From Rhynchopus sp. YZ270_cl-10 (Eukaryota): a stretch of DNA of 20,000 bases. The notes beneath the pieces were generated by a model. That model worked only from the letters and a program-made list of their open reading frames with translations, did not search any database and was not told the origin of the DNA. The DNA lies in NCBI GenBank assembly GCA_964035575.1, contig OZ037842.1, positions 1,794,173 to 1,814,172 of the forward strand, in the 5' to 3' direction. Shown here one piece after another: positions 1,789 through 20,000 of this stretch. Made by a program: the position numbers and the translations under genes. The first letter of the stretch is position 1. Each line of letters starts with the position of its first letter.

Positions 1789-1869
1789 GAAATTTTTTTA
1801 TCCCAAAAAAAAATTCAATGAAGACGAAACCGATAGACGTTTGATGTTGATAGTTTGTCGCAAGCTATC

Positions 1870-3777
1870 ATGATGCGTTTTTTTAGCAAGGACAAGGAGA
1901 CGAAAGACGCAGTGGATAATGCAAATGTCGTGGACCCTTATTACAGAGACGCAAAGGTTGTGGGGGAGTATATGTGTCTGCACAATGCGCGTGCTATCAT
2001 ACGACGGGACAAGTACGACAAAATCACCCGCATCAACAACTACTGTGTAAAGAAGCTGCTAGGCGAAGGACGCTACGGCGAAGTCTACCTCTGCAAGTCT
2101 ATGCGGGTGCACACCTTCTTTTGCTGCACATCTGAGACAAAGGACACAGACGACGAATTTGCCATCAAACTCGTCCGCAGATGCGACGTGAGGAAGGAAG
2201 AGTACAAGATCCTGAAGAGCGTGCAGCACGACCACATCGTGAGTCTTGTTGAGTACATTGACGACGCGACGCACCCTTGGGTCTTTCTTGTCTTCGAAAG
2301 CCTGGGGGGTGGACCCATTGCGGTGTGTTCTGACGACGGCTGCCTGATCCGCCCCGAGAAGCCATGGACAGAGGAGAAGGCAGAACCGCTCTTCGCTCAG
2401 ATGATCCTTGCACTGGAGTACCTGCACGGCAGAGGTGTCTTCCACCGCGACATCAAACCCGAGAACGTTGTCTTCACATCTCCAGAGGAAACGGACGTCA
2501 AGCTCATCGACTTCGGTGAGTCGCGAATGCTCAAAGCTAAGGTGAAAGGTCTTGCCGACGACTCCTCACGAGTGACGAAGGGCACACCGCTGTTCATGGC
2601 CTGTGAGATGTTGAGCGGCATGCGATTCTCTGACAGCCAAGCGGACGTGTGGGCCCTCGGTGTCCTGTTCTACCTGTTGTGTACAGGGTACGTCCCCTTT
2701 GGAAGGGGTAAGAAGACGACCTTTGAGCTGCACACCCAGATCCAGTTCGAAGTGCTAACGTTCCCAGACACAATGAGCCTTCACCTGCAGGAGATGCTCA
2801 CAAAGATGCTTGACAGAGATGTTGCAAAGCGAGCGTCCCTCCCGTACCTCAAACGTCACGAGTGGTTCTCAGGTGTCGCTTCAAAGGAAGGCGATTCTCT
2901 CGAAAAGTCTTCCGGCAGTTTCCGTGGGAACCCTCTCCGGAAGCGAAGCCCTGGTCTGAACACGCTTCCTTTGTTGGATGCAGATCTTGTGCGATCGAAG
3001 TCACCTTTCACCCTTGAGGAGTGCGTAAGCACACCAGTGCAGGGGGCAAAGGAAAAGGATTCGGAGTCGGCTCTCGGGTTTATTTTGGACGACTCAATCT
3101 TGGTCAAGAATATGCTTATTGTGGAAGACAGTGGGAAGATGCGTTCGCAGTTGCGATGGTTGCTCGAACATTCGAAACTGAGCAGGGTTAATCTGGAGCT
3201 CTCTGAAATGCAATACGTAGAAGACGCACTCGAAAAAATGCTCAATATGTCGAAGCAAGGTACACCCTTCGACCTCGTCATTATGGATATTTACCCTAGA
3301 AACAACGGAACGACTCAGACGGGGGTCGACGCCATCATCGCGCTAAGGGAGTTTGAGCACATGGAAAATCTTGACCCAACACCTGTGTGGTTCAGTTACT
3401 CCGAGTCGGAACCGTTTCCCTTTTTGGATGACACAATGACGAGGCTAAAAACGGGCATCATCGAGAAGCCGTTCACCACCCACCAGGCACGCTCTATATT
3501 GTGCCATCTTGGTGTGCGGTGCTGTGGCATCCAGGAAGAGGAGTTCCAGGAGATGGTCGAGCAAAGCAACCACTTCGCGGACGCGCAGTTCATTGCGTCG
3601 CAGTGTTCTCTGAGGAAAGGCTCTCTCCCGACAGGGTACCTTGACCGCACGAACATTATCAGTGTTCCAGATGATTACACAAGCAAAGATGATGAGTTCA
3701 GCGAGGACAAACTTGAAATATCCCTCGGTTCCGGCGGGTTCGTGCGAGAGACAAGCGAGAGGTCTTTGGGTCAATAG
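1870..3777 (+). CDS. CAMKK/GRIK-like Ser/Thr protein kinase with C-terminal response-regulator receiver (REC) domain
   Basis: Kinase motifs LGEGRYGEV, AIK, HRDIKPEN, DFG, GTPLFMACE, DVWALG (about 2041-2868). INNY..., LVEYIDD..., GGPI resemble CaMKK/GRIK kinases. REC motifs LIVED, FDLVIMDI, TPV, EKPF (about 3109-3510). First in-frame ATG is 1870; the ORF track start at 1855 is TTG. Confidence 0.88.
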   Translation: MMRFFSKDKETKDAVDNANVVDPYYRDAKVVGEYMCLHNARAIIRRDKYDKITRINNYCVKKLLGEGRYGEVYLCKSMRVHTFFCCTSETKDTDDEFAIKLVRRCDVRKEEYKILKSVQHDHIVSLVEYIDDATHPWVFLVFESLGGGPIAVCSDDGCLIRPEKPWTEEKAEPLFAQMILALEYLHGRGVFHRDIKPENVVFTSPEETDVKLIDFGESRMLKAKVKGLADDSSRVTKGTPLFMACEMLSGMRFSDSQADVWALGVLFYLLCTGYVPFGRGKKTTFELHTQIQFEVLTFPDTMSLHLQEMLTKMLDRDVAKRASLPYLKRHEWFSGVASKEGDSLEKSSGSFRGNPLRKRSPGLNTLPLLDADLVRSKSPFTLEECVSTPVQGAKEKDSESALGFILDDSILVKNMLIVEDSGKMRSQLRWLLEHSKLSRVNLELSEMQYVEDALEKMLNMSKQGTPFDLVIMDIYPRNNGTTQTGVDAIIALREFEHMENLDPTPVWFSYSESEPFPFLDDTMTRLKTGIIEKPFTTHQARSILCHLGVRCCGIQEEEFQEMVEQSNHFADAQFIASQCSLRKGSLPTGYLDRTNIISVPDDYTSKDDEFSEDKLEISLGSGGFVRETSERSLGQ

Positions 3778-4439: not shown

Positions 4440-5166
4440 CCAGAAGTTTGTAAGTTATTGCCTCCACACAGTGTCGAAAGCCAACAATTTAGGGGGTTTG
4501 ACCCACTGTGCGTCTCCATCTGTTGGTGGGTGCTTGAGAATTAGGAAATGAAGCCGAAAACTAGGAGAGGCAGGGTCATCACATCAGGCGTGTGAGAGTC
4601 TATCATAGACTTTGTCATAGTCTCTCATTTTCCCTTTTTCCCCTTGTTCGTGGTTTATGTACACGGGAAGCAACCTCAGATGGTGTTTTCGACTTCAATT
4701 TCCGTTTGTACACCTTGATCGCGGTTTGATGAAAAGTGGGCTTGTCGAAAATTTCAGAAATCCTTACCACAATTCTTGCACTAGCAGCGACCGCTACGGC
4801 GGAAGCTCGGGTCACCAAATCACCCCCTTTTTGGCCAAAAGTCGTGATGGGTGATTTTTGGCTTGACATTCGGAGGCAATAAAAGCAACCAGCATTTGTC
4901 ATCACCTTCCAGTAAGACAGGTTGATGGTCAATAGCACAAAACAAAGAAAAAAAAGAAATGAAGTGCCCTTGCGGTTTCTGCCCTTCACAGGTGCATCAC
5001 ATTCCCTTTCTGCATTATTTGTTTATCCCACAAAATTTGTGGAGTCAACTGCTCTTTTTGTACACTTAAACGGTTCTGTTTTTCGACAGTGCGTTAGCTC
5101 AAAATGCGTCAAAAACACATAAAAACACATAAAAAAAAGTTCACCTTTTTTGCCTTAGCTCCTTAG

Positions 5167-5671: not shown

Positions 5672-7392
5672 ATGAGGTCTCTGTGTGTGATGCTATTGGG
5701 CGCCCTCTCACTCCGCAGAGGTGCCACTGCGCAGTGTGCCTCGCAGCAGCCGTGGTGCAGTGCCTTCACGCCCGCTCCAGCACCACAAGTCATGTCAACG
5801 TGCCCGGATCCTGGATCCGTCATTGGCCAGCCTATTGACCCACATTGCAAGAATCGGTTGCGCACCTGGCAGGTGGCACGTGTGCTTGAGCAGCACAACC
5901 TGTACAGGGAACAGCACGGTGCATGCCCGATGACGTACAGCACTGCCCTGGAAGACCATGTTATCGCGAGCTCAACCTTCCAGACCACTTGCGACATAGA
6001 CATCCCCTCGTTCTCCAAGATTAAATTATATGGTGAGAACATTGCCTCGGTGAGTGGTGTGCCTGGCGGAGACTTCTCGAGATGGGATGTGGCTGAGGGT
6101 GTGAAGGACTGGTACTGCATGCAGTAGGGCTGTTACAACTACGATAGCCAGCTTGGCAATTCCCCCATCTGGATCTTCGCACAGGTGGTATGGAAGGAGA
6201 CACTCGAGGTCGGGTGTGGTGTGTGCTCTTCCGCCTCTGGTCGCGTGCACCTCATGTGCTATTATCATGAGCGCAGCAGGTTACTGGTTGGTTCGCAGTT
6301 CACAAGTATCGGAGCACCTGGCACGACAGCGTCAGGGTGTGCGTCTGCAGTGACAACAGCTCCAACTTCTGTTCCCACAGCACAGCCTACTGCAGTGCCG
6401 ACACCTGTTCCGACAGCAATGCCAACAGCAGCGCCAACAGCACAGCCGACGTCAGCACCAACAAGCGCCCCTTCGTGCACAGAGAAGGACACGATGTCAA
6501 TGATGTGCTCACGGAGCCTGCCTGACACATGCCGCTTCAAGGTGCAGCACCATGAGAGGGTGCTCTCTGTTGCGTTCTCGAGCGACGGCACGCACTTTGC
6601 CACTGGCAGCGATGACGGAGTACGTGTGTTTGAGAGTGCAACAGGCACACAGACGCTGAAGCTTGCGTGTGCAGACTTTGCCGTGCACGACGTTGTGTTC
6701 TCGCCGGACGCACTGTCGGTTGCTGTTGCAGGTGGGTGGACGTGCTGTGGTGTGCAATGTGGCGACGGGAGCACTGCGGTACGTCCTGCACGACCTGGGG
6801 AGCAGAAGCACGCCGATGCGTAAGGTCGAGTACTCGCGTGTGGGTGGCCTGCTCGCGGGTGGGAACGCGCCAAGCACACGTGTTGTGCATGCAGACGACG
6901 GTGCCTTGGACCTTGTCATCCACACGCATGCGCGCAACGTCGCGTTTTCTCCTGACGGAAGTCTGCTGGCAACTGTGGTGGGGAGCGAGGTGGACGAGAT
7001 TGTGCAGATATGGGACGTTGTGACGGGGGGCGAAGGTGGGCACTGTTGCTTCTGAGGGTGCGCGCGTGGTGTCTGTGGCGTTCCTGTCTGGCCGTGAGCT
7101 GCTGCTGGGATGGATAGTGGTGCCGTCCTTGTGACTCGCTGGGCAAGCGGGACTGTCGGTGTGGGTGTCGCGACAGTGGCAGCAGCAGTGTCGATGCCCT
7201 CTCACGTGCTGCACCATGCCACGCCCTCTGCAGACGGGCAGCTCTTTGCTGCTGCAGGCCCTGCAGAGGTCGTCGTGTGGACGGCAACAGGCACTGTGCA
7301 CACCCGTCTCACCGGCCTCGACGCTGTTGTGGCTCAGGCATCCTTCTCCCCTGAAGGAGGCTTTCTTGCCACTGCCGGGCACGACGGGTCGC
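5672..7392 (+). pseudogene. Disrupted gene: signal peptide + CAP/SCP (PR-1-like) domain + Pro/Thr/Ala linker + WD40 repeats, truncated by the tandem array
   Basis: MRSLCVMLLGALSL signal-like start. CAP motifs HNLYREQHG, YGENIA, WY, QVVWKETLEVGCG, with an in-frame TAG at 6125-6127. PTAQPTAVPT repeats at about 6352-6475. WD40-like units (VLSVAFSSDGTHFATGSDD, VAFSPDGSLLAT..VQIWD, ASFSPEGGFLATAGHDGS). Frameshifts near 6735, 7025-7030 and 7107. Confidence 0.75.
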
Positions 7393-8367
7393 TCCTTGCA
7401 CAGCATCCTTGCACAGCATCCTTGCACAGCATCCTTGCACAGCATCCTTGCACAGCATCCTTGCACAGCATCCTTGCACAGCATCCTTGCACAGCATCCT
7501 TGCACAGCATCCTTGCACAGCATCCTTGCACAGCATCCTTGCACAGCATCCTTGCACAGCATCCTTGCACAGCATCCTTGCACAGCATCCTTGCACAGCA
7601 TCCTTGCACAGCATCCTTGCACAGCATCCTTGCACAGCATCCTTGCACAGCATCCTTGCACAGCATCCTTGCACAGCATCCTTGCACAGCATCCTTGCAC
7701 AGCATCCTTGCACAGCATCCTTGCACAGCATCCTTGCACAGCATCCTTGCACAGCATCCTTGCACAGCATCCTTGCACAGCATCCTTGCACAGCATCCTT
7801 GCACAGCATCCTTGCACAGCATCCTTGCACAGCATCCTTGCACAGCATCCTTGCACAGCATCCTTGCACAGCATCCTTGCACAGCATCCTTGCACAGCAT
7901 CCTTGCACAGCATCCTTGCACAGCATCCTTGCACAGCATCCTTGCACAGCATCCTTGCACAGCATCCTTGCACAGCATCCTTGCACAGCATCCTTGCACA
8001 GCATCCTTGCACAGCATCCTTGCACAGCATCCTTGCACAGCATCCTTGCACAGCATCCTTGCACAGCATCCTTGCACAGCATCCTTGCACAGCATCCTTG
8101 CACAGCATCCTTGCACAGCATCCTTGCACAGCATCCTTGCACAGCATCCTTGCACAGCATCCTTGCACAGCATCCTTGCACAGCATCCTTGCACAGCATC
8201 CTTGCACAGCATCCTTGCACAGCATCCTTGCACAGCATCCTTGCACAGCATCCTTGCACAGCATCCTTGCACAGCATCCTTGCACAGCATCCTTGCACAG
8301 CATCCTTGCACAGCATCCTTGCACAGCATCCTTGCACAGCATCCTTGCACAGCATCCTTGCACAGCA
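7393..8367 (+). repeat. Perfect tandem array (TCCTTGCACAGCA) x75
   Basis: 975 bp = 75 x 13. No variant unit seen on reading. Confidence 0.97.
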
Positions 8368-8435
8368 GGGGACCATTTTTTACAGGGGACCATTTTTTAC
8401 AGGGGACCATTTTTTACAGGGGACCATTTTTTACA
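8368..8435 (+). repeat. Tandem repeat (GGGGACCATTTTTTACA) x4, the reiterated 5' end of the retroelement
   Basis: Four exact 17-bp units starting at 8368, 8385, 8402 and 8419. Confidence 0.95.
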
Positions 8436-8570
8436 CATTACAACACACTTGTCCTTTCTTTTTACCCTCCCTCCCTCCCCCTTTCCTTTGTTTTATTGTG
8501 AGCCTTGTACGCCTCCACGGGGCGGTCCCTGGGCAACGGTAGAGGAGTGCAGGCCGGCGAAGCGCAAGGC
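8419..8570 (+). ncRNA. HDV-like self-cleaving ribozyme at the retroelement 5' end
   Basis: P1 GGGGACC (8419-8425, or any upstream unit) / GGTCCCT (8524-8530) with G1.U wobble. P2 GCCTTGTAC (8502-8510) / GCGCAAGGC (8562-8570). P3 GCC (8511-13) / GGC (8521-23). L3 TCCACGG. P1.1 CC (8515-16) / GG (8531-32). GCAA, then P4 CGGT/GCCG. J4/2 GCGAA with putative catalytic C8558. Confidence 0.85.
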
Positions 8571-8624
8571 GTAGTGTGTCTTGTCCTTCTTTGTTTTCGT
8601 TTTTTGGTTTTTGCTTTTTTAAAA

Positions 8625-9124
8625 ATGAGGAGGAAGGCCCTTTTGGGGGCGTTGTGGGTGGTGCTGCATGTCTGCATCAGCAGCAGCAGCAGGAGCTACA
8701 CCAGCAGCAACAACAAGAGCAGCAACAGCAGCAACAGCAGCAACAGCAGCAACAGCAGCAACAGCAGCAACAGCAGCAACAGCAGCAACAGCAGCAACAG
8801 CAGCAACAGCAGCATATACTACACCAGCTGCAACTGCAGCAGCAGCAACAACGGCAGCAACAGCAGCAACAGCAGCAACAGCAGCAACAGCAGCATATAC
8901 TACACCAGCTGCAACTGCAGCAGCAGCAACAACGGCAGCAACAGCAGCAACAGCAGCAACAGCAGCAACAGCAGCATATGCTACACCAGCTGCAACTGCA
9001 GCAGCAGCAACAGCAGCAACAAAAGCAGCAACAGCAGCAGCAGCAGCAACAGCAGCAACAACATATGCTACACCAGCTGCAACTGCAGCAGCAGCAACAG
9101 CAGCAACAAGAGCAGCAGCAACAA

Positions 9125-9165
<41 letters not shown>

Positions 9166-12100
9166 ACAGGAGCAACAACATAAGCTGCATCAACAGCAGT
9201 AGCAGGAGCACCAACAGCAGGAGCGGCAGCTACAACAGCTTCCTCATCAGTGGCAGGAGCCCCCTTCCCCCCCTTTTTTACCCCAAAAAGAGGCCTCTTG
9301 AGCCCAACAACCCAAGCAGCTGCAGCTTTGATAGCAGCAACAAAAACGTGTGTGGAGGCAACAAAGCAAAGAACTGTTGTCATAACAACCCACACCCCCC
9401 TTCCCCCCATGATATCCCCAAAAAGAGGCAATGTATGCCCAACCACATCAGTGGCTGCAACTGTGATAGCAGCAAAAACGAAATCTTCGGAGTCCTGGGT
9501 GGGGTCCCAGTATCACCCCTGGTGTGCAGCAGCAGCAGTTCCAAAGGCCTTTACAGCAGCAGTTCCAACAGCAGGCTCTACAGCTTTTTCACCAGCAGTT
9601 CCAAAGGCTTCTGCAGCAGCGGTTCCAACAGCAGGTCCAACAGCAGTTCCAACAGCAGGCACAACAGCAGTTTAAACAGCAGTTCCAACGGCTTCTGCAG
9701 CAGCAGTTCCACGAGCGTTTCCAAAAGCAGTTCCAGCAGCAGTTCCAGCAGCAGTTCCAACAGCAGGCACAACAGCAGTTTCAACTGCAGTTCCAAAGAC
9801 TTCTGCAGCAGCAGCTCCAACGGCAGGTCCATCAGCAGTTCCAACAGCAGGCTCAACAACAGCAGTTTCAACAGCAAGGACTTCTGCGGCAGCAGCTCTA
9901 ACGGCAGGTCCAACAGCAGTTCCAACAGTAGGCTTAACAGCAGTTTCAACAGCAGTTCCACAGACTTCTGCAGCAGCGGTTCCAACAGCAGGTCCAACAG
10001 CAGGTCCAGCAGCAGTTCCAACAGCAGGCACAACAGCAGTTTCAACTGTAGTTCCAAAGACTTCTGCAGCAGCAGCTCCAACGGCAGGTCCATCAGCAGT
10101 TCCAACAGCAGGCTCAACAACAGCAGTTTCAACAGCAGTTCCAATGGCTTCTGCAGCAGCAGTTCCAACAGCGTTTCCAAAAGCAGTTCCAGCAACAGGC
10201 ACAACAGCAGGCACAACAGCAGTTTCATCAGCAAGGACTTCTGCGGCAGCAGCTCTAACGGCAGGTCCAACAGCAGTTCCAACAGTAGGCTTAACAGCAG
10301 TTTCAACAGCAGTTCCACAGACTTCTGCAGCAGCGGTTCCAACAGCGTCTCCAAAAGCAGTTCCAGCAGCAGTTCCAACAGCAGGCACAACAGCAGTTTC
10401 AACTGCAGTTCCAAAGACTTCTGCAGCAGCAGTTCCAACAGCAGGTCCAACAGCAGCACCAACATCAACAGCAGACGCAGCAACAACATCAGCGACAACA
10501 ACCTAGGGGGTGGTGAGCGAGGTATGCTGGTGTTCGGGGTCAGCCTTGCGGGGCGAGAAGGACAGAGTGGCTGTGTGATGATGCGGGTGTGGCAAAAGGG
10601 GTGTGTACAGATAGAGTTTTGGTTCGACTGGTGGTGCAACCTCTGGGAGGTCTTCACCTCCTTGCGTCAGCCTGACCCCTGCTGGGTAGCCGAGGCACCT
10701 GAGTGGGGAGTGTTTGTGTCGTTCGCGGTCCTGGATCTGTGGAAGGACAGACGCGCCCCTACCCTCAGTCATCTCATTTTGTGGCTGGTGGGCAGGAGGA
10801 CCAGGAGGACGCGACGAGGACACCGGTCCTTGAACTGGACCAAGTCACAGGCGGGCAGGCTCCGTCGGCGCAAGGCGCCCTGCAATCGTCCGCCCTCCCC
10901 GGCAGCGCACCCAGTTTTCCGCAGGATCAGGGTCGCCGATGCGTTGAGAGGTGCTTTGCAGTGTGTGGCCATCTGGGTTCTGGTTTTTGTGGGGTCTGAG
11001 CTTGGGAGGTCAGCGCCACATGCTTTGGGTTGTGCGCTGTTTCGGGACGCGGAGGTGCTGGGGGTGGGTCTGCTGCGGGGACTGTTCCGCGCACGCAGGG
11101 GGTGGCGGTGGCTGGAAGGGGCGAGCGAGCGAGTGCACCGATGGACCGGAGGGATCCGAGTGGCTGCCAGCTTGGTGAGAGCCAGTGTGATGGGGGTGGG
11201 TCAGTTGTCGGTGCGTGCAGCCGAGTGGGTGTGGGTTGCATGGTCCGCAGGTGGTTGTTTGGCGGGTTTTGTGGCACTGGTCGGCGTCGCGCGCCCACTT
11301 GGCTGGGTTCTTCTCTTGGAGGTGCGCCGTGTGGCAGCACGCAGGTGGACTCGTAGGATCGGGATGGCATTTGGCATGCTGGCGGTGTCCCTACTGGTCT
11401 TGCTGTCGTTGTTGTGGCGAGCGGTGACGCCCTGGGACCTGCGCCCTGCCCCTGCTGATCCGGAGCACCCGGTAAGCTTGTCCCCGTTTGCGTTGACCGG
11501 TGGGTGCGCAAACGTGAACGCTCCTGCGTATACAGAGCAGGCGGTGTCTGTGGACGCGACTCTGGCGAAGTTTGGAGCTAAACGCATCCCCAACGTGTCT
11601 ACTAATGATTGTGGTTATGTGGCACTACACCTCTGGGACCACGACACGCAGCCGGACGTGAGGGCAATGCGCAAGCAGCTGTATGACACAGCAGTGGAGG
11701 TGTCGAACCGCCTGGTGCAGGTGCTGGGGTCGCAGGAGGCCATGACGGAGTTTGCCAATGGTGTGACCGGCGAGGCCCACCTCAACCACTTGGGGCTTCA
11801 GCTCACCGCGACAGCATCCCGCATCAACATCGTGGTGGTGCAGGCATCGGAAGAGAACCCCCTCGTGCGCATCACCCCTGGTAGCAAAAGAGTCGCCAAG
11901 TCGTACGCGGAGAGCTTCCAAGCGAAACTTCCCACGGTCGTCATCGCTCTCTGTGACTCTCACTTTGAGGCAGTGGAGCTTGTCCCGGAGGTGGGGAAGA
12001 CCAAGGAGGGGATGGCAGAGAAGATGAGGAAGGAGGCTCGGCAGGCAGTGCTGGACACAGCGCATTTGGATGGCATCATCCCCACCAACACCACCACCAC

Positions 12101-13509
12101 CGCCCCCCTGGCTACCAAGCTGGGACACATCAATGCGGATCGGGTGTTCTGCCCCTTTGATGGATGCAGAGCGGGAATTTTGTCTTCGAGTGATGCGGTC
12201 GGGGGCCTGTCTCGTAAGGGCTTGCTGCAGCACATGCGTCGCCACCAGGCCGATGGGGCGTACATCCCCGACGAGCTGTTGGGCCACTTGGGCATGTCGC
12301 GCTGTGCGAACGATCAGTGCGACATGCTATTGCCGCAGAGCAAGGAGGTCTGCAACACCTGTACGGTGCACTTTGGCGAAGAAGGCTTCACCGCTCCGTC
12401 TCCCTCCAGTCGAGGAATGCTGACAGATCAGGATGACCTCCCCTCCTTTGAAGTCATGGGGACCACCAGGATCCAGCTGAAGGGCGGGTGCCCAGACAAA
12501 CACCTACAGCTGTACAGCGAGCTCTTCCTGAGGGTCCTCATGGACATCCTGGAGTACCAGGACGAGGTGGCCTGGAAGCGCCTTGCACTGTTCTTCACAG
12601 TGTTGCACCGGACACGGACAGAACGAGGGGGCAAGGACCAGGAGCGACGTTTGACGAGCACCTGGGGGAAGGACTTGGAGGCTTGGAAGGCTGGCCAGTA
12701 TGTCGCCCTGTGGGAGCAAACGGTAGAGGAGCGGAAGCCAAGGCCCTCTGGGTGGCCGGATGAAGACACTGACGAAGGGAGACGGAAGCGCACCATCGCC
12801 AAAGCGAGAGCAGGACTCCCGAGCCAGGCCATGTCTTGCGCTACCAGCGACGGCCTCGCCCCACAGACACCGGCGACGCTGGAAAAGCTTCAGACGAAGC
12901 ACCCAGCCGCTGCCGACTCCAAGGCCCTGGAGCAGGCGGATTGGCCCCAGCCTCAGGAGGTCCCACCGGTGACAGTGGTGGAGGTGATGAAGGCCCTGCG
13001 GAGCATGCCGAAGTCATCGGCGGCGGGTCCCTCGAACGTGACGGGCGCGCACCTTCGTACACTTTGCCTACAGAGGCGGGCTAAGGGCACTTTGGCAGCG
13101 CTGGCCGCAGTGTTGACGTCTTTGGCACGAGGAAATGCTCCAGTGGAGGTGGCTGAGTTCTTCGCCGGCGCTAACTTGGTGGCTCTCCGGAAGCCTGCAA
13201 AGGGGCCGGGCCTGGAGGAGGACGTGCGACCGATTGCGGTTGGGGACACTCTCCGCAGACTGGTGGGAAAGATTCTGTCGGCGCGAGTGCGGGTGCCTGC
13301 TAGGACGCTTCTTCTTCGAGGGAACCAGGTGGGGGTGGCAACGGCAAGGGGGGCGGCAGTGGCGACGGATGTTATCTCGCAGTACGCCGTGCGCAACCGC
13401 GGAAAAGGTAAAGTCATTTTGAAAATTGACTACCGTAACGCGTTCAACTGCGTAGACCGCCTGTCGATGCTAAGAGCGGTCGACGCGAACCTCCCCGAGC
13501 TGGCCCCAT
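8625..13509 (+). CDS. Retrotransposon polyprotein, N-terminal part: signal-like peptide, Ser/Asn-rich region, hydrophobic segments, OTU-like domain, zinc fingers, RT subdomains 0-3
   Basis: ATG 8625 (MRRKALLGALWVVLHVCI). OTU-like NDCGYVAL (Cys 11610) ... SHFEAV (His 11961). C2H2 CPFDGC...LLQHMRRH (12150-12245). RT motifs SAAGPS, RPIAVGDTLRRLVGK, LKIDYRNAFNCVDR. The frame is broken by the 52-bp duplication. Confidence 0.82.
8677..10500 (+). repeat. Low-complexity AGC/AAC trinucleotide region with higher-order repeats, inside the element ORF
   Basis: (AGCAGCAAC)n runs, four copies of ...CTACACCAGCTGCAACTGCAGC at ~81-87-bp spacing (8814-9090), and repeated CAGCAGTTCCAA units (9530-10450). Confidence 0.9.
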
Positions 13510-13561
13510 CGCCTGTCGATGCTAAGAGCGGTCGACGCGAACCTCCCCGAGCTGGCCCCAT
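13458..13561 (+). repeat. Exact 52-bp tandem duplication that frameshifts the RT
   Basis: CGCCTGTCGATGCTAAGAGCGGTCGACGCGAACCTCCCCGAGCTGGCCCCAT at 13458-13509 and 13510-13561. Confidence 0.97.
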
Positions 13562-16500
13562 GGGTGCGATGGTGTTACCTGGAGCCCTCCAGCCTGTTTT
13601 ATGGTGGAGATACCATAAGGTCACAGCGCGGAGCTCAACAAGGAGATCCCTTGGGCCCGCTTCTCTTCTCCCTGACCATCCACCAGATGGCGCTAGAGCT
13701 GAAGGGGCACCCAGGCCTGGATGGGACTTTGTGGTACCTCGATGACGGCTCTCTGCGGGGGTCCCCTAAGGCGGTTTTTGAGGCGTACCAGGTTCTGCGC
13801 ACTCGTAGCTCCGAACTGGGGTTGGAGGTGAACGCGAACAAGTGTGAGCTCATCTCCACTGGTGGCGTCTCCACGGAGGAGCTCAAGGCGGTGGGGTTCA
13901 CGTTGACCGAGGGTGGACAGGACGCCATGGGTGAAGGCGGGTTCCGGCTGTTGGATGTGGATGGGTTCGATTTCTTGGGCATCCCCATTGGGTCTGCGGC
14001 ATTCTGCGAGGAGTACATGGCCCGGAAGGTGGACGATTCCCGCCGCAACCTGGAAGCCCTTGTGGACCTCGGGGACTCCCAGGCAGCCTTCTACGTACTG
14101 AGATACTGCGAAGGCTACTGCCGCATGGTGTTCTACATGCGGGGGATCCCACAGTGCGCGGAGTACCTGACGGCCTTTGACGACCTGATCGACAGGTGCC
14201 TGGCTGCGCTTCTGCATGACCCGGATGGGGCGCTGCCGGAGTTGGCAAGGGCGCAGGCGGCGCTTCCTGTGGCGCTTGGGGGGCTGGGTATCCGTCGCAC
14301 AGTGGACCATCGGACGGCTGCGTCCCTCGCCTCTCAGTCAGGGAACCTGCAACTGTCGCAGGCCTTGGACCCTGCCTTCACCTGGGATGAGGAGAGATGG
14401 AACAGCGCAGCTGAGGAGTACAACTCCAGGGTACCGGTGGCGTTTCACGTGGACAGGGCCCAGCCGAAGAAGATCCTGGAGCAGCAGAGTCTGTCATCTG
14501 CGGTGATTGACGCCCAGGCAGACAAGTTGATGCAACAGCTCTGCATGCGAGACCGAGCACGGATGAAGTCCCTTCTCCTGCCGCTTTCTGGGACGTACCT
14601 CACGGCGACACCATCAGCAAGGAACCAGATGTCTTCAGCGGATTTTGCGGTTGTGACCCGTTTCCGACTAGGGGTGGCCATCCATGCGGAGGGAACGACT
14701 TGCTCGGCATGTCAGGGGGGGCAGAAAAGGGTTGTCATGGACTCCTTTGGCGACCACACCTTTGGCTGCCCCTACTCCAAACACCGCGTCGCCCGCCACA
14801 ACGCCTTGCGGGATTCGGTGTACAGAGCGGCTCAAGGGGCGGGCTTGGACCCTGCTTTGGAGGAGACCGTGCGAGTGGAGTTGGAGTCTAAGAAGCGGCC
14901 AGGCGATGTCTACCTCCCAGTAGGAGTGGCGGAAAATGGACCTCGTTGTTTGGACATCACCCACGTGTGCCCCACCTTGCCTTCCTACAGAACAGGGGCC
15001 TCGAAGTTTGTGGGCTGGTCGGCGAAGAACCAGGGCCAGGTCAAACGGGAGAAGCACGAGCGGGATTTGAACAAGATCAACACCAAGTTCTCCCCTATTG
15101 TGTTTGAAGCCTTCGGGGGTGCAGGCGACGAGGCGAACCTCTTGATTGCGCAGCTTGGAGGCCTGACGACGGGACAGACGTCGCACCTAACAGGGTCGGC
15201 AGAGTTGCGCATCCGGGAGAGCATTGCGGTGGCGTACCAGAAAAAGGTCGCATCTTCCTTTCTGGAGCGGGGTGCTATGTGTGTAGGGATTGCCACCCTG
15301 AAGCGGGAGCCGTGTGTGGAGGTAGATGTGGCACCGTCTGCAGAGGACATGGACCGGTTTGGACGCCGCAGTGCAGGGGCTGTGGAACCTCTCTGTGATG
15401 ATGCGAACCCTGACGACGATATGAGTCGTCCTGCTCCAGACCGGTCGGAGGAGCAGCAGGGGAAGCGCAAGAGGGACGTGAAGCCGGACCACGTGGAGCC
15501 ACCGAGGAAGCGGACCGGGAGGTTTGATTCGGCTACCGTGATTCCGGAAGGGCCGGGTCTCGATGTGGTGCGTGAGTGGGAGTTTTTGCGTGAGTGCCCG
15601 GCAGCGCAGAGGCCTCGGGCGACGGAACAGGCGGCCAAGCTGGGAGCCTCGAAGGTGACTTGGTCGTTTGTGGCGGGGGACTGTGCTTTTGAGGCTTTGC
15701 TCTTCGCCACCGGGCGCACGGATTTGTCGGTGGAGGGTCTGCGCCAGGCGGCAGTGAAGAAGGTCCAGGGCCGCGCTGATCTGTCGAGTGCGGCTGTCCC
15801 TAATTTTGGGGTCTGGCAGCGGCTGATGACGAGTGGGGACAGAGGAGACCAGCGAACGTGGGCGGATGCCATTGCAGTGGCGGGGGCAGGGGAGGCTCTT
15901 GAGGTATCTGTGGTCATCCTCAACGAGTTCGCCCGCCCTTCTCTGATGGTGCCAAGAAAACGGCCTAAGGCAGTGGTCCTTCTCCTCCACTCGGGTGACC
16001 AGGATGCGGCAGATGGATCCGGCAGTATCCCGGGACACTACGAGCCCCTCACCATGGACCCGGCTCTGCAGCAGCACATCCTGTCTTTTGAGGCCACAGG
16101 TGGTAAGGGGGAGTGCCAGTCAGAGCGCCCCATGGCTTTTGTGGGAGCGAGGGAGGCGGAGGCGTCGAACACTTTCCTGCAGTGCGAACAATGCAGCAAG
16201 CTCTTCGATGCGTCGGACGCACACTTCTGCTGTCACACGTGTGGTGGCTTGGCATGTCTGCACTGCGCTCAGGGGTCCAAGCACTGCCCTCTGTCGCAAA
16301 TTGGCAGGGCGGAATACTTCAGTGCCCTGTCTTTTTTGCACTCGAATGTTCCGGCTCAGGCTGCCTCTGCGGAGGGGAGCGGAGACCCACCACCTAAACG
16401 GGCTCCTTCTCCAGCAGTGCCAGCTCCCGAGGGCGAGGACGTCGAGGAGGTAGACACGCCAATGGCGGGCGAAGAGGGGCAGCAGGCAGAACAGAAGCAG

Positions 16501-18291
16501 CAGAAGCACGAGAAGCAACGGAAACAGCAGAAGCAGCAACAACAAAAGGCGGACCAGGATAAGAAGGAAGCGTTGCAGCGTGCGTCGGACGCGTGGCAGC
16601 AAGCCCTGGAGGTACGGCGGGAGCATCGTCGGTCGTGGGGACCGGATTTGGCCGCGCTTCGGGGCACTTTTGGCGACCGCCAGCAGGAGTTGAGTCGTTT
16701 CCTGGAGGAACAGAATGTGCGTCTGGACCAGGCGAAGGCGGCGGACAGGCATCGTGTGGAGGAGCTGACCGCCAGGCACAAGCGGGAACTCGCAGAGGAC
16801 GCGAAGAGGATGCATGCGCAGTACTTGGAAGACTGCGATCGGCACCCCGAAGCAGGAGAGTCGCTCCGGGCGGAGTATGACAGGCAACGCTGCGAGAGGC
16901 ATTACGCCATCGCAGCTAAGCATGAGTCGGAGCAGAAGGCGACCACTCTGTTGTTGACGGCGGTGAACCTCTCCCGACAGCTGGAGGCGGAACGCATGGT
17001 GGCATACGGGCGGTGCTTTGGGGTGGTGTGCGAAGGGCGGCTATTCCTCCCCTGCCATGCGGTGCGGAGAGCGGTGGGCGACGACCCTGAAGGACTCGAA
17101 CCTGACTGTGTCGGCGACTGGATGGCTCTCTTTGGTCCTCAAGGTGCTTCTCCGTGCCCGGGCGAGTTCCTGTACTGCTGGGCGACACAGCAGCCGTGGA
17201 GTGGGAACGGGGAGGGGGACGGTGATTGCCCGGAGTCGGTGGTCGCCCGTCAGGCGGTTAGGAAGATAGCAGGGGAGGCCGGATACTGCGACACCTGGGG
17301 CAAGACCAGCGCGGTCATCGTCGTTCGGGAAGGCAGGGTCAGCTGGGGAACCCCTTCTCGGGATCAGCTGGAGGAGGAGGTGGGGCGACAGGCCGAGGCG
17401 GCAGACACCGAGGTGCGTGTGAAGGTGGAGGAGATGGATGATGATGAGCAGGAGCAGGAGGAGGACCTCGACACCGCGATGGAGGGGGCGGATCGCTCGC
17501 ATCCTCTGTCAGTGGAAGGCATCCCTGACCAGAAGAAGCAAGCGAGGGTGAGGGAATTGCTGAGGGCGCAGAGCGAGGCTTGGATGTGGACGGAGGAGGA
17601 GCGGACGGAGAGGGGGGGTCTTTTCCCGTGCCTCACCATGGGGTCGCCGGTGCCTTCTTCTGTGACGAAGTGGATCTCCCTGTTCCACTACCGTCAGGGA
17701 GAGAAACAGGATGGCAGACCCTTGTTGTCACTCCCCCTCTCTACCGCTACTTTCACTCAGTGGTATGAGGTGATGAAGGTGGTGGGTTTGCATGAGTGGT
17801 CGGTTCAGGAAAAGTGCAAGGCAAAGTCGACGTTGCATGCCCTGACGGACAACCGGAGCAGTAGGGGGCAGGCCTTTGCAGCGGAGAGTACAAGGAGGGA
17901 GAATGAGGCACGAGCGGCTCGAGAGGGAATAGGCCGACAACCTCAAGCCTCCTCTTCTTCTTCTTCTTCCTCCACCTCTGCAGGCCGTGGCACTACAACC
18001 TCCATCGCCCAACCTGCAGTCTCCACTTCTTCCTCCTCCTCATCGGCAGGCCGTGGCAATGCAACCTCCTCCGCCCAACCTGCTCCTTCCCCAGCTCCCA
18101 AAGGACCCCAGCGCCATGCAGCTCAGGGTAGGTCCAACACGTCGAACGTGTTCACCGACGCAGTGGCACAAGCGACGCAGCATGTGCTCTCGCCCCAGGA
18201 GGTGCAGAGAGGGCGCAATGGTCGCGGTGGTGGACAGAAGGGGAGACAGAGCGGAGGAAGGAAGGGGAAAAAGGGGAATAAAAAGAATTAG
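13510..18291 (+). CDS. Retrotransposon polyprotein, C-terminal part: RT core, CCHC + REL endonuclease, second OTU-like domain, Cys-rich finger, coiled coil, basic tail
   Basis: GAQQGDPLGPLLF, WYLDDG (13732-13749), FLGIPIG, GGLG. CSAC...GDHTFGC, RHNALRD, RPGD, LDITH, KREKH. OTU-like GDCAFEAL (Cys 15682) ... TWAD ... GHYEPL (His 16036). CEQC..CHTC..CLHC. Stop TAG at 18289-18291. Confidence 0.9.
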   Translation, partial: RLSMLRAVDANLPELAPWVRWCYLEPSSLFYGGDTIRSQRGAQQGDPLGPLLFSLTIHQMALELKGHPGLDGTLWYLDDGSLRGSPKAVFEAYQVLRTRSSELGLEVNANKCELISTGGVSTEELKAVGFTLTEGGQDAMGEGGFRLLDVDGFDFLGIPIGSAAFCEEYMARKVDDSRRNLEALVDLGDSQAAFYVLRYCEGYCRMVFYMRGIPQCAEYLTAFDDLIDRCLAALLHDPDGALPELARAQAALPVALGGLGIRRTVDHRTAASLASQSGNLQLSQALDPAFTWDEERWNSAAEEYNSRVPVAFHVDRAQPKKILEQQSLSSAVIDAQADKLMQQLCMRDRARMKSLLLPLSGTYLTATPSARNQMSSADFAVVTRFRLGVAIHAEGTTCSACQGGQKRVVMDSFGDHTFGCPYSKHRVARHNALRDSVYRAAQGAGLDPALEETVRVELESKKRPGDVYLPVGVAENGPRCLDITHVCPTLPSYRTGASKFVGWSAKNQGQVKREKHERDLNKINTKFSPIVFEAFGGAGDEANLLIAQLGGLTTGQTSHLTGSAELRIRESIAVAYQKKVASSFLERGAMCVGIATLKREPCVEVDVAPSAEDMDRFGRRSAGAVEPLCDDANPDDDMSRPAPDRSEEQQGKRKRDVKPDHVEPPRKRTGRFDSATVIPEGPGLDVVREWEFLRECPAAQRPRATEQAAKLGASKVTWSFVAGDCAFEALLFATGRTDLSVEGLRQAAVKKVQGRADLSSAAVPNFGVWQRLMTSGDRGDQRTWADAIAVAGAGEALEVSVVILNEFARPSLMVPRKRPKAVVLLLHSGDQDAADGSGSIPGHYEPLTMDPALQQHILSFEATGGKGECQSERPMAFVGAREAEASNTFLQCEQCSKLFDASDAHFCCHTCGGLACLHCAQGSKHCPLSQIGRAEYFSALSFLHSNVPAQAASAEGSGDPPPKRAPSPAVPAPEGEDVEEVDTPMAGEEGQQAEQKQQKHEKQRKQQKQQQQKADQDKKEALQRASDAWQQALEVRREHRRSWGPDLAALRGTFGDRQQELSRFLEEQNVRLDQAKAADRHRVEELTARHKRELAEDAKRMHAQYLEDCDRHPEAGESLRAEYDRQRCERHYAIAAKHESEQKATTLLLTAVNLSRQLEAERMVAYGRCFGVVCEGRLFLPCHAVRRAVGDDPEGLEPDCVGDWMALFGPQGASPCPGEFLYCWATQQPWSGNGEGDGDCPESVVARQAVRKIAGEAGYCDTWGKTSAVIVVREGRVSWGTPSRDQLEEEVGRQAEAADTEVRVKVEEMDDDEQEQEEDLDTAMEGADRSHPLSVEGIPDQKKQARVRELLRAQSEAWMWTEEERTERGGLFPCLTMGSPVPSSVTKWISLFHYRQGEKQDGRPLLSLPLSTATFTQWYEVMKVVGLHEWSVQEKCKAKSTLHALTDNRSSRGQAFAAESTRRENEARAAREGIGRQPQASSSSSSSSTSAGRGTTTSIAQPAVSTSSSSSSAGRGNATSSAQPAPSPAPKGPQRHAAQGRSNTSNVFTDAVAQATQHVLSPQEVQRGRNGRGGGQKGRQSGGRKGKKGNKKN

Positions 18292-19277
18292 AGAGCTAGA
18301 GAGTTAGAGGGTGAGAGTGTGTGTGTAGAAGCGTGTAGAGAATGACAGTTTGCCCCATGTTTATTTTTAACCCTTTTTATTTTGTGTTTTTTGTTCTTTT
18401 CATCCTTTGGGGTTTGCCCCCCCTTTCCCCCCTTTCCGCCCCCCTTCCTATTTGTTAATATTTTTGGTTGGCTGCTGGCTAGGACGGGTCTACCCCAGCG
18501 ACGGCCCGTACCCCTTGGACGAGGCTCTGAGGGTAGAGGGCAGTCTCGGAGTAAGACCTGTCTAAGAGCCAGGCCAGTGGCATCAGGAGCCATTGGGCCA
18601 CTTTTATAGATTGTGCAGTAGAGTAGAGTTTGTACAGAACTCTTGTCCTTTGAGTTCCTTTTTTCACTCCTTTAGTTTTTCATTTTTACCTTGTGAAGGT
18701 CAATTTCAATTTTTCATTTTTCAAAACCACCACAGGTAAGCACGAGACCCACCATTGTTGTTGTTGATTTTGTTGTGCGTTATTGTTGTTTTCCCCTTTG
18801 GGTGTCAGTCAGTCGGGTCAGGTCACACTTACTGAAGTTCTCAAAAATTTTCACCAAAAAGAAAACTACTAAAAAGATTATGGAACTTCCTTTTTATTTG
18901 TTTGTGTGTTACAGAGGAAACGGCTCACTCAATCCCCTCCTTCTCCTCCCCTCCCCTCCCCAAGACAAAGCAAAATAAAACTACACCGGTAGACAGAGCA
19001 ACCCTCCCGTCCCATCCCCTCCCCTTTTCCTTTTGGGAAAAATTGCACTCACATACGACCCTTTTGCTTATTTGCAGGGAAGTGTTGGTTGTAGTTGTCC
19101 CACATGCTTTCTATTTTAGTGCCACTAACTGTGTTTTCAGGCACTGTCTTGCCAGTACAATAGTAAAGTGCCCTTGTCTGGACATCTAGCTGTTTACATA
19201 CTCGCTTGACTAGTAAGTACCCCCTCTGTCACTGGATGTAGATAAAAAAAGCGAGCCTAGGGCTAAGTTGAACAACA

Positions 19278-19278
<1 letters not shown>

Positions 19279-19320
<42 letters not shown>
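19279..19320 (+). repeat. Poly(A) tail of the retroelement (42 A)
   Basis: Pure A run about 990 nt after the ORF stop. Confidence 0.85.
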
Positions 19321-19322
<2 letters not shown>

Positions 19323-19662
19323 TTTTAGTAGTTTTCTTTTTGGTGAAAATTTTTGAGAACTTCTGTAAGTGTGACCTGACCCGACTGACTGACACCCAAA
19401 GGGGAAAACAACAATAACGCACAACAAAATCAACAACAACAATGGTGGGTCTCGTGCTTACCTGTGGTGGTTTTGAAAAATGAAAAATTGAAATTGACCT
19501 TCACAAGGTAAAAATGAAAAACTAAAGGAGTGAAAAAGAAACTCAAAGGACAAGAGTTCTGTACAAACTCTACTCTACTGCACAATCTATAAAAGTGGCC
19601 CAATGGCTCCTGATGCCACTGGCCTGGCTCTTAGACAGGTCTTACTCCAAGACTGCCCTCTA

Positions 19663-19665
<3 letters not shown>
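19321..19665 (-). repeat. Inverted copy of element 3' UTR segment 18531-18876
   Basis: The reverse complement matches GGGTAGAGGG...ACTACTAAAAAG with only about 3 substitutions and 1 indel seen. Confidence 0.95.
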
Positions 19666-19700
<35 letters not shown>

Positions 19701-20000
19701 GGAAGCTGTGGAAGCTGTGGAAGCTGTGGAAGCTGTGGAAGCTGTGGAAGCTGTGGAAGCTGTGGAAGCTGTGGAAGCTGTGGAAGCTGTGGAAGCTGTG
19801 GAAGCTGTGGAAGCTGTGGAAGCTGTGGAAGCTGTGGAAGCTGTGGAAGCTGTGGAAGCTGTGGAAGCTGTGGAAGCTGTGGAAGCTGTGGAAGCTGTGG
19901 AAGCTGTGGAAGCTGTGGAAGCTGTGGAAGCTGTGGAAGCTGTGGAAGCTGTGGAAGCTGTGGAAGCTGTGGAAGCTGTGGAAGCTGTGGAAGCTGTGGA
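19666..20000 (-). repeat. Poly(T) x31 (19666-19696) followed by tandem array (TGTGGAAGC)n from 19698 to the window end
   Basis: More than 33 perfect 9-bp units. On the minus strand it reads (CACAGCTTC)n-CACAT-poly(A). Confidence 0.96.

Follow-up and report, generated by a model that had tools for sequence, protein, structure and literature searches.

Retrotransposons headed by a self-cleaving ribozyme are already known. HDV-like ribozymes free the RNA of R2, R4 and RTE elements from co-transcripts (PMC3774820), and ribozyme release from host read-through RNA has been demonstrated for L1Tc (PMC5814959); these two papers, as well as PMC12278014, PMC12857005, PMC10161547, PMC11371274 and PMC2887409, are cited throughout for the excerpts of them available to us. 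An earlier sequence-only reading of the DNA described here had cited such processing of R2 and L1Tc RNAs, and the first two papers agree with it. Within these excerpts, the ribozyme-bearing clades of PMC3774820 are R2, R4/Dong, baggins, L1Tc and RTE, with CRE absent, ribozyme activity in PMC12278014 is given for INGI only, and the word 'ribozyme' is absent from the main text of PMC12857005 and PMC10161547; SLACS and CZAR are not mentioned in PMC4035085. In the full-text literature searched, which excluded Ruminski 2011, Fell 2025 and Repbase, we found no report of a CRE-clade ribozyme, and the sequence-only reading knew of none either. Fell 2025 reportedly inventoried CRE elements. The novelty of a CRE-clade ribozyme is thus likely, not certain, and an additional clade alone would be a modest gain; the design is known, the clade is one for which we found no report, and what is new is a candidate acceptor ending J1/2 together with unusual arrays at the junctions.

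The L1Tc/ingi Pr77 ribozyme (L1TcRz) resembles the present case in that an HDV-like fold stands at +1 of a non-LTR element in a polycistronic euglenozoan, with the cut predicted at the element 5' boundary (PMC5814959). The endonuclease of L1Tc is of APE type and its ribozyme a compact 77 nt, whereas the element described here has a restriction-like endonuclease (RLE) and a 152-nt fold with a 76-nt J1/2; L1Tc transcripts lack a spliced leader and IRES-like translation was proposed for them, whereas J1/2 here ends in a candidate acceptor. R2 and R4/Dong are of RLE type, and long J1/2 loops and 5'-junction reiterations are known there as in our element (PMC3774820). R2 is, however, rDNA-specific, and its reiterations are mostly of the 28S target, at most about three copies in the junctions illustrated (PMC3774820), while our element repeats its own first 17-19 nt and its target-derived arrays reach 75 copies. 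With the genomic HDV and F. prausnitzii HDV-like ribozymes (RF00094 and RF02682) the fold shares the P3-L3-P1-GGGCAAC core and the J4/2 strand; it differs from both in having the P1 5' strand 76 nt upstream.

The window, by which we mean the whole 20,000-nt stretch that was analysed, contains the helices of a nested double pseudoknot (P1, P2, P3, P1.1 and P4) in the correct order at 8419-8570, as mapped on the sequence:

8419 to 8570, plus strand: HDV-like ribozyme fold, predicted to cut 5' of G8419, with predicted catalytic C8558
8419-8425 with 8524-8530: P1, 7 bp, the first being G8419.U8530, the other six Watson-Crick
8426-8501: J1/2, 76 nt, 79% pyrimidine
8502-8510 with 8562-8570: P2, nine positions including one U.G and one A.C mismatch
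8511-8513 with 8521-8523: P3, 3 bp
8514-8520: L3, 7 nt
8515-8516 with 8531-8532: P1.1, 2 bp
8533-8536: J1.1/4, the GCAA linker
8537-8556: P4, short, with only 3-4 firm pairs
8557-8561: J4/2, containing C8558

HDV-like ribozymes have a G at +1 within a G.U first pair of a 7-bp P1, as G8419.U8530 and its helix do here. They also have a catalytic C in J4/2 followed by N-R-A, with U and G at L3 positions 1 and 6; C8558, U8514 and G8519 fit this arrangement, and the same features appear in the Rfam consensus lines. The sequence-only reading had described an ordered double pseudoknot with a G.U pair in P1, a 3-bp P3, a 7-nt L3, P1.1, GCAA and a C-bearing J4/2, and all of these were located by the element-by-element mapping, as was its 76-nt pyrimidine-rich J1/2. 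The parallel drawn there with genomic HDV holds for P3-L3-P1-GGGCAAC and J4/2, which align to the RF00094 and RF02682 consensus lines, and the ORF ATG placed 55 nt downstream is the first ATG, at 8625, counted from 8570. Its P2 is present, but the A.C mismatch had gone unmentioned. Also missing there was the fourfold occurrence of the P1 5' strand (at 8368, 8385, 8402 and 8419), which arises because the first 17 nt of the element are tandemly repeated. We consider the HDV-type fold at 8419-8570 confirmed as a real feature of this sequence, its catalysis being predicted. Our main reading, to which we give a probability of about 0.8, is that the fold forms the first bases of a likely CRE-type element and cuts the element RNA from host read-through RNA just before G8419.

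The sequence-only reading had proposed descriptor or Infernal searches. The HDV descriptor, composed from general HDV rules after the sequence was seen, finds a single core on both strands of the window (40 kb in total) and had any match in one of 400 block-wise dinucleotide shuffles. Since it was written post hoc, the background of a slightly wider descriptor in related loci is the fairer measure; two matches per 1.57 Mb correspond to about 0.05 expected per window. The Rfam models remain below their gathering thresholds: RF02682 scores 24.6 bits against 44 (E-value 0.74 for the whole window, 0.0034 for 91 nt) and RF00094 13.6 bits against 50, so the fold is assigned to neither family. With the P1 5' strand 76 nt upstream, both models misplace P1 and score too low. 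A chance match in GC-rich sequence would sit well with the low Rfam scores and with a descriptor composed after the fact; nevertheless, we hold it to be very improbable given the 0.05 expected matches, and given that the first base of the match is the element boundary although the descriptor was free to place it anywhere in 250-300 nt.

Thermodynamic folding used ViennaRNA, a program unable to represent pseudoknots. P1 had a probability of ~0 in each of the four folds in which it was included, and its 5' strand paired with J1/2 instead; P2 reached 0.96-0.98 with the core folded alone and was absent in longer folds. As duplexes, P1 and P2 have energies of −12.0 and −10.5 kcal/mol. Copies of the fold in runs X1, X3, X7 and X10 are about 99% alike and offer zero covarying pairs to count. 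The list of differences for these runs, incomplete for X7, contains four within 8419-8570, located in J1/2 (8490) and distal P4/L4 (8541, 8544 and 8546), while the core and P1-P3 are unchanged; the change at 8541 strengthens P4 from −2.1 to −3.3 kcal/mol.

The element is flanked by repeats on both sides:

7110 to 7398, plus strand: fragment of a host WD40-repeat gene, split by the insertion (Pfam WD40 E-value 3.5e-4, below cut-off)
7393 to 8367, plus strand: perfect array of 75 copies of a 13-nt unit, adjoining the 5' junction; each unit includes the final 6 nt of the left flank
8368 to 8418, plus strand: the element's opening 17 nt, repeated head-to-tail three more times, each time from G1 (alternative P1 5' strands)
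19279 to 19320, plus strand: poly(A) tail, the 3' end of the family
19321 to 19696, minus strand: 3' UTR segment 18531-18876 copied in inverted orientation (98.8%), then a 31-nt T run
19698 to 20000, plus strand: perfect array of at least 33 copies of a 9-nt unit at the 3' junction, running off the window

The sequence-only reading had placed the ribozyme at the 5' end of a retrotransposon. Consistently, the target-derived array stops at 8367 and the element begins at a G1, and the predicted scissile position is the element's own first base (G1) in the window and in other samples. Starting at 8368, four copies of the element's opening 17 nt stand in tandem, and the fourth continues into J1/2. 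The boundary region (8335-8700) was compared in four of the 24 runs (X1, X3, X7 and X10, from four studies), on contigs, not RNA, none of which covers all of 8335-8700. G1-anchored tandem units were observed in all four runs, with T-runs of 5 to 8 and unit lengths of 17 to 19 or more nt. One X1 contig spans 8418-8700, with a branch at its left edge, and in X3 two further flanks are attached, at 8418 and at 8413. The 13-nt array was found only in X7, so X7 may be the source of the window, while X1, X3 and X10 are independent. The last four letters of one X3 flank are those of the window's left flank just before the break, a weak hint of target preference.

An identical 5' boundary would also result from a promoter at +1, which counts against reading the boundary as set by a ribozyme. 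An internal promoter could set the 5' end while the fold cuts weakly or never and serves mainly for 5' protection or for binding an element protein; in L1Tc the initial 77 nt serve as promoter and as ribozyme alike, and inactive copies occur among trypanosomatids (PMC5814959). The competing folds, the A.C mismatch in P2 and the weak P4 point the same way. Still, the catalytic-core positions are all intact and unchanged among the listed differences from other studies, and the L1Tc example shows that promoter and ribozyme are not mutually exclusive. We judge this explanation rather unlikely.

In the preferred reading, that of a ribozyme cutting before G8419, the host transcribes polycistronically, so an element landing in an ordinary gene would be co-transcribed. 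Cleavage catalysed by C8558 would leave a full-length RNA with a 5'-OH as the template for copying. The reverse transcriptase (RT) may then run off at G1 and re-copy the last 17-19 nt of the template, producing G1-anchored repeats; 17-19 nt is close to the hybrid length that an RT protects. The variation of the T-runs suggests that the units were copied one by one. Every repeat would supply a fresh P1 strand, and innermost cleavage would remove the extras and reset the element. Removal of extra copies by cleavage has been modelled for R2 duplications (PMC3774820). Re-copying of this kind could also have produced the 13-nt and 9-nt arrays, from short stretches of target DNA, and, from cDNA, the inverted 3' UTR copy together with the T run that follows it. 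R2 proteins jump templates and make snap-back inversions (PMC11371274); those inversions are described at 5' junctions, whereas the inverted copy in the window sits after the poly(A).

Both long arrays are 100% perfect and exactly adjoin the element junctions, and both are known from one locus. The 9-nt unit appears to correspond to the opening 9 nt of the right flank. The reverse complement of the 13-nt unit (7393-7405) matches the 9-nt array (19698-19715) at 9 of 10 positions, which hints that the arrays are linked. The inverted 3' UTR copy (345 nt, after the poly(A) and bounded by A/T runs) is likely specific to this copy; its joint was not present in the X1, X3 and X4 contigs, in a comparison that skipped the repeats there.

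A ribozyme could be active and the arrays and the inverted 3' piece nevertheless have another origin, namely host slippage after insertion, or else amplification or assembly of the source sample. We give this a substantial chance, though below even. Perfect duplications are present outside the junctions as well (17 nt at 793, 13 nt at 1294 and 52 nt at 13458), the 52-nt one is missing from three other runs, and the 13-nt array appears in one run of four, probably the source run. Against this, both perfect arrays abut the junctions exactly, the G1-anchored repeats recur in four studies, and one of the X3 flanks is itself a short imperfect repeat. The 13-nt array also has high word depth in the X7 contigs and is therefore more than a product of the final assembly. 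Finally, R2 junctions bear short reiterations of target sequence (PMC3774820). If the RT makes the arrays, it would directly generate minisatellites in the repeat-rich genomes of diplonemids, and the arrays would bear on the junction fidelity of RLE-based gene-insertion tools; RTE elements are known to seed microsatellites (PMC2887409).

The host is likely a diplonemid, judged by the sequence of one gene: the PDI at the start of the window is 78% identical to that of Rhynchopus euleeides and 65% to that of Flectonema neradi. In Diplonema papillatum, genes lie in unidirectional clusters and practically every mRNA carries a spliced leader (PMC10161547); its SLACS-like RT genes are expanded to 745. 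In a scripted reconstruction of the empty site, the frame of the WD40 gene continues and completes a WD repeat ending in Trp-Lys, the gene being on the same strand as the element; no plain target-site duplication is visible at the insertion. Elsewhere in the host DNA there are further perfect tandem duplications at 793-826 (17 nt), 1294-1322 (13 nt) and 5111-5135. A protein kinase gene (1855-3777) encodes a weak C-terminal response-regulator receiver domain (E-value 0.0016); a search with its C-terminal half returned no relative except itself.

In such a trans-splicing host J1/2 may have a second function:

8426 to 8502, plus strand: J1/2 and AG, comprising an A/C-rich stretch, a polypyrimidine tract and AG 8501-8502, a candidate spliced-leader (SL) acceptor

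Ranked by upstream pyrimidine content, AG 8501-8502 (90%) is first of the 1557 plus-strand AGs, and the AG upstream of the host kinase gene is fourth by the same measure. The candidate acceptor trinucleotide is GAG, and the sequence from this AG to 8625 is free of ATG. Our literature search turned up no diplonemid acceptor rules. On this sequence evidence we put the odds that AG 8501-8502 acts as an acceptor at about even. Trans-splicing at 8501-8502 would yield a capped mRNA devoid of P1, in which the first AUG (8625) opens the ORF, and unspliced RNA would retain the ribozyme for the next copy; J1/2 may be long because it carries the acceptor. The translation of uncapped, ribozyme-cut RNA is a puzzle in both R2 and L1Tc, and an acceptor within the ribozyme would be a concrete answer in a host that trans-splices. 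A wider proposal combines these parts: the 5' RNA module would be a switch between self-cleavage, yielding an uncapped full-length template, and SL acceptance in J1/2, yielding a capped ribozyme-less mRNA, and a telomerase-like RT, processively re-copying short templates, would write minisatellites with tens of perfect copies at the two junctions of one insertion. This combination is tentative, and we lean against it.

The body of the element encodes one long protein:

8625 to 18291, plus strand: one long ORF, frameshifted in this copy; 3205 codons once the duplication is removed
8674 to 10500, plus strand: low-complexity repeat region, CAG/CAA-rich
11580 to 12050, plus strand: first OTU-like protease domain, a lead (ESM Atlas 0.93; clusters with Pfam OTU on 19-78% of members)
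12150 to 12350 (end approximate), plus strand: C2H2-like and CxxC zinc-finger-like motifs, seen in the translation
13200 to 13910, plus strand: RT core, split by the duplication (RVT_1 E-values 2.3e-8 and 0.0067 for the two halves)
13458 to 13561, plus strand: perfect 52-nt tandem duplication, in this copy only
14701 to 14956, plus strand: CCHC knuckle and restriction-like endonuclease motif (H-x3-C, RHN, E, RPGD, D)
15550 to 16101, plus strand: second OTU-like protease domain, a lead (ESM Atlas 0.94; top cluster OTU 72%)
16168 to 16281, plus strand: FYVE-like zinc finger, weak (Pfam E-value 9e-4, below cut-off)

The whole is an 11-kb, poly(A)-ended retrotransposon with RT and restriction-like endonuclease. 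The 52-nt duplication at 13458-13561 causes the frameshift of the window copy; the X1, X3 and X4 contigs (three studies) skip it, so the copies there have an intact frame, and all three end at 19266, adjoining the A-run. Near-identical DNA was detected in 15 of the 24 listed runs (11 studies), with at least half of the words in nine.

CRE-clade elements have a single ORF with zinc fingers, RT and RLE, internal repeats and poly(A) (PMC12278014), and the SLACS/CRE/MoTeR endonuclease motif has an H-x3-C knuckle followed by RHN...E...RP.D (PMC12857005). Our element has the same plan (single ORF, zinc fingers, RT and a C-terminal restriction-like endonuclease) as well as the poly(A) 3' end and an internal repeat region. 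The endonuclease spacers are 2, 14, 3, 8, 20, 10 and 15; their order and the H-x3-C match SLACS/CRE/MoTeR, whereas the C-H spacer is longer, another spacer is shorter and RPGD deviates. Among 120 homologs, 78 have H-x3-C, 8 have H-x4-C and 34 do not match the motif. With a profile built from 50 relatives, R2 structures are hit at 1e-35 and L1 at 1e-14. In a quick, unfinished RT tree of 47 rows without labelled references the window element sits on a long unsupported branch, its best identity being 35%. On sequence grounds we consider the element a likely CRE-type non-LTR retrotransposon, as the sequence-only reading had proposed; the RT and endonuclease ORF with its SLACS/CRE/MoTeR-type motif makes it CRE-like by motif.

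With the described members of the clade (SLACS, CZAR, CRE1/2; MoTeR, FoTeR, Cnl1) the element has in common the ORF plan, the poly(A) and the H-x3-C knuckle. Unlike them, it lies in a protein-coding gene and not in an SL RNA gene or telomere, lacks a plain target-site duplication, has a C-H spacer of 14 instead of 6-8, and encodes, in an ORF of about 3200 codons, a FYVE-like finger as well as two OTU-like domains. It also has a predicted ribozyme head, which the excerpts of CRE-clade literature examined do not describe. It is not counted among the trypanosomatid SLACS/CZAR/CRE1-2 elements, which insert into SL RNA genes with a target-site duplication: it lies in a WD40 gene, and X3 shows other flanks.

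The two OTU-like domains and the FYVE-like finger lie around the RT-endonuclease core, which the OTU-like domains flank. The OTU-like calls are based on ESM Atlas features and visible Cys/His motifs; Pfam does not match OTU at either domain, the two domains do not align with one another, and 23 long relatives yielded none in a crude search for OTU motifs. The ORF starts with a signal-peptide-like hydrophobic stretch, and the repeat region (8576-9202 and 9524-10400) encodes Ser/Asn-rich sequence in its open frame; a second frame there, which is interrupted, reads as poly-Gln.

To see how general the ribozyme is, we used 123 related loci (80 from metagenomes and 43 from a genome collection), mostly 25-40% identical and mostly without a 5' end. 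In the 80 metagenome loci the strict descriptor found one upstream core, in L074, which we judged to be a chance occurrence, its P1 having 6 bp and its 113-nt P4 no clear closing helix. In the 43 genome-collection loci it found none on the plus strand and one on the minus strand, and the relaxed descriptor gave 9 upstream, 8 downstream and 17 minus-strand cores, that is, background. In 24 hand-picked loci with a stop-bounded long ORF (26.9 kb) the relaxed descriptor yielded three plus-strand versus six minus-strand cores. Rfam searches of 16 loci (12 and 4) returned no ribozymes, and two pattern matches in viral contigs were not in relatives. All relatives are distant and the descriptor may miss divergent ribozymes. 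Since no convincing HDV fold heads the 24 distant relatives, recruitment in this lineage is the simpler reading; from the sequences, the ribozyme was likely recruited in the lineage of the window element, and an ingi/Vingi donor is plausible. The fold's absence from distant relatives speaks for acquisition at the time a CRE-like element gave up SL genes as its target, and against an ancestral trait.

Some of the related loci have 5' structures of another kind. A conserved structured motif of ~45 nt within a long variable outer helix was observed at L081:6468-6555 and L089:6440-6528 (plus strand), L125:1490-1578 (minus strand), and L127:1478-1568 and L128:1478-1568 (plus strand). In L081 and L089 it lies in the 5' UTR of two distant CRE-like elements; in L127 it is about 300 nt before an unrelated long ORF, and L125 and L128 have no ORF nearby. 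RNAalifold gives 22 pairs over the five sequences, six of them changed on both sides. The motif is not HDV-like and, for L089, is unmatched in Rfam at E-value 10; it has some twister-like features. We regard it as a candidate 5' retrotransposon RNA of an undescribed type, perhaps a ribozyme. Although filed in bacterial bins, the contigs carrying it look eukaryotic.

A possible pseudoknotted 5' UTR, not HDV-like by the descriptor, directly follows a (GAA)n tract at L060:90-170. Several distant relatives (L054, L077 and L080) have in common a short AATGGCG motif in the 5' UTR upstream of the ORF, presumably a YY1-like promoter element, which suggests that these relatives have promoter-type heads.
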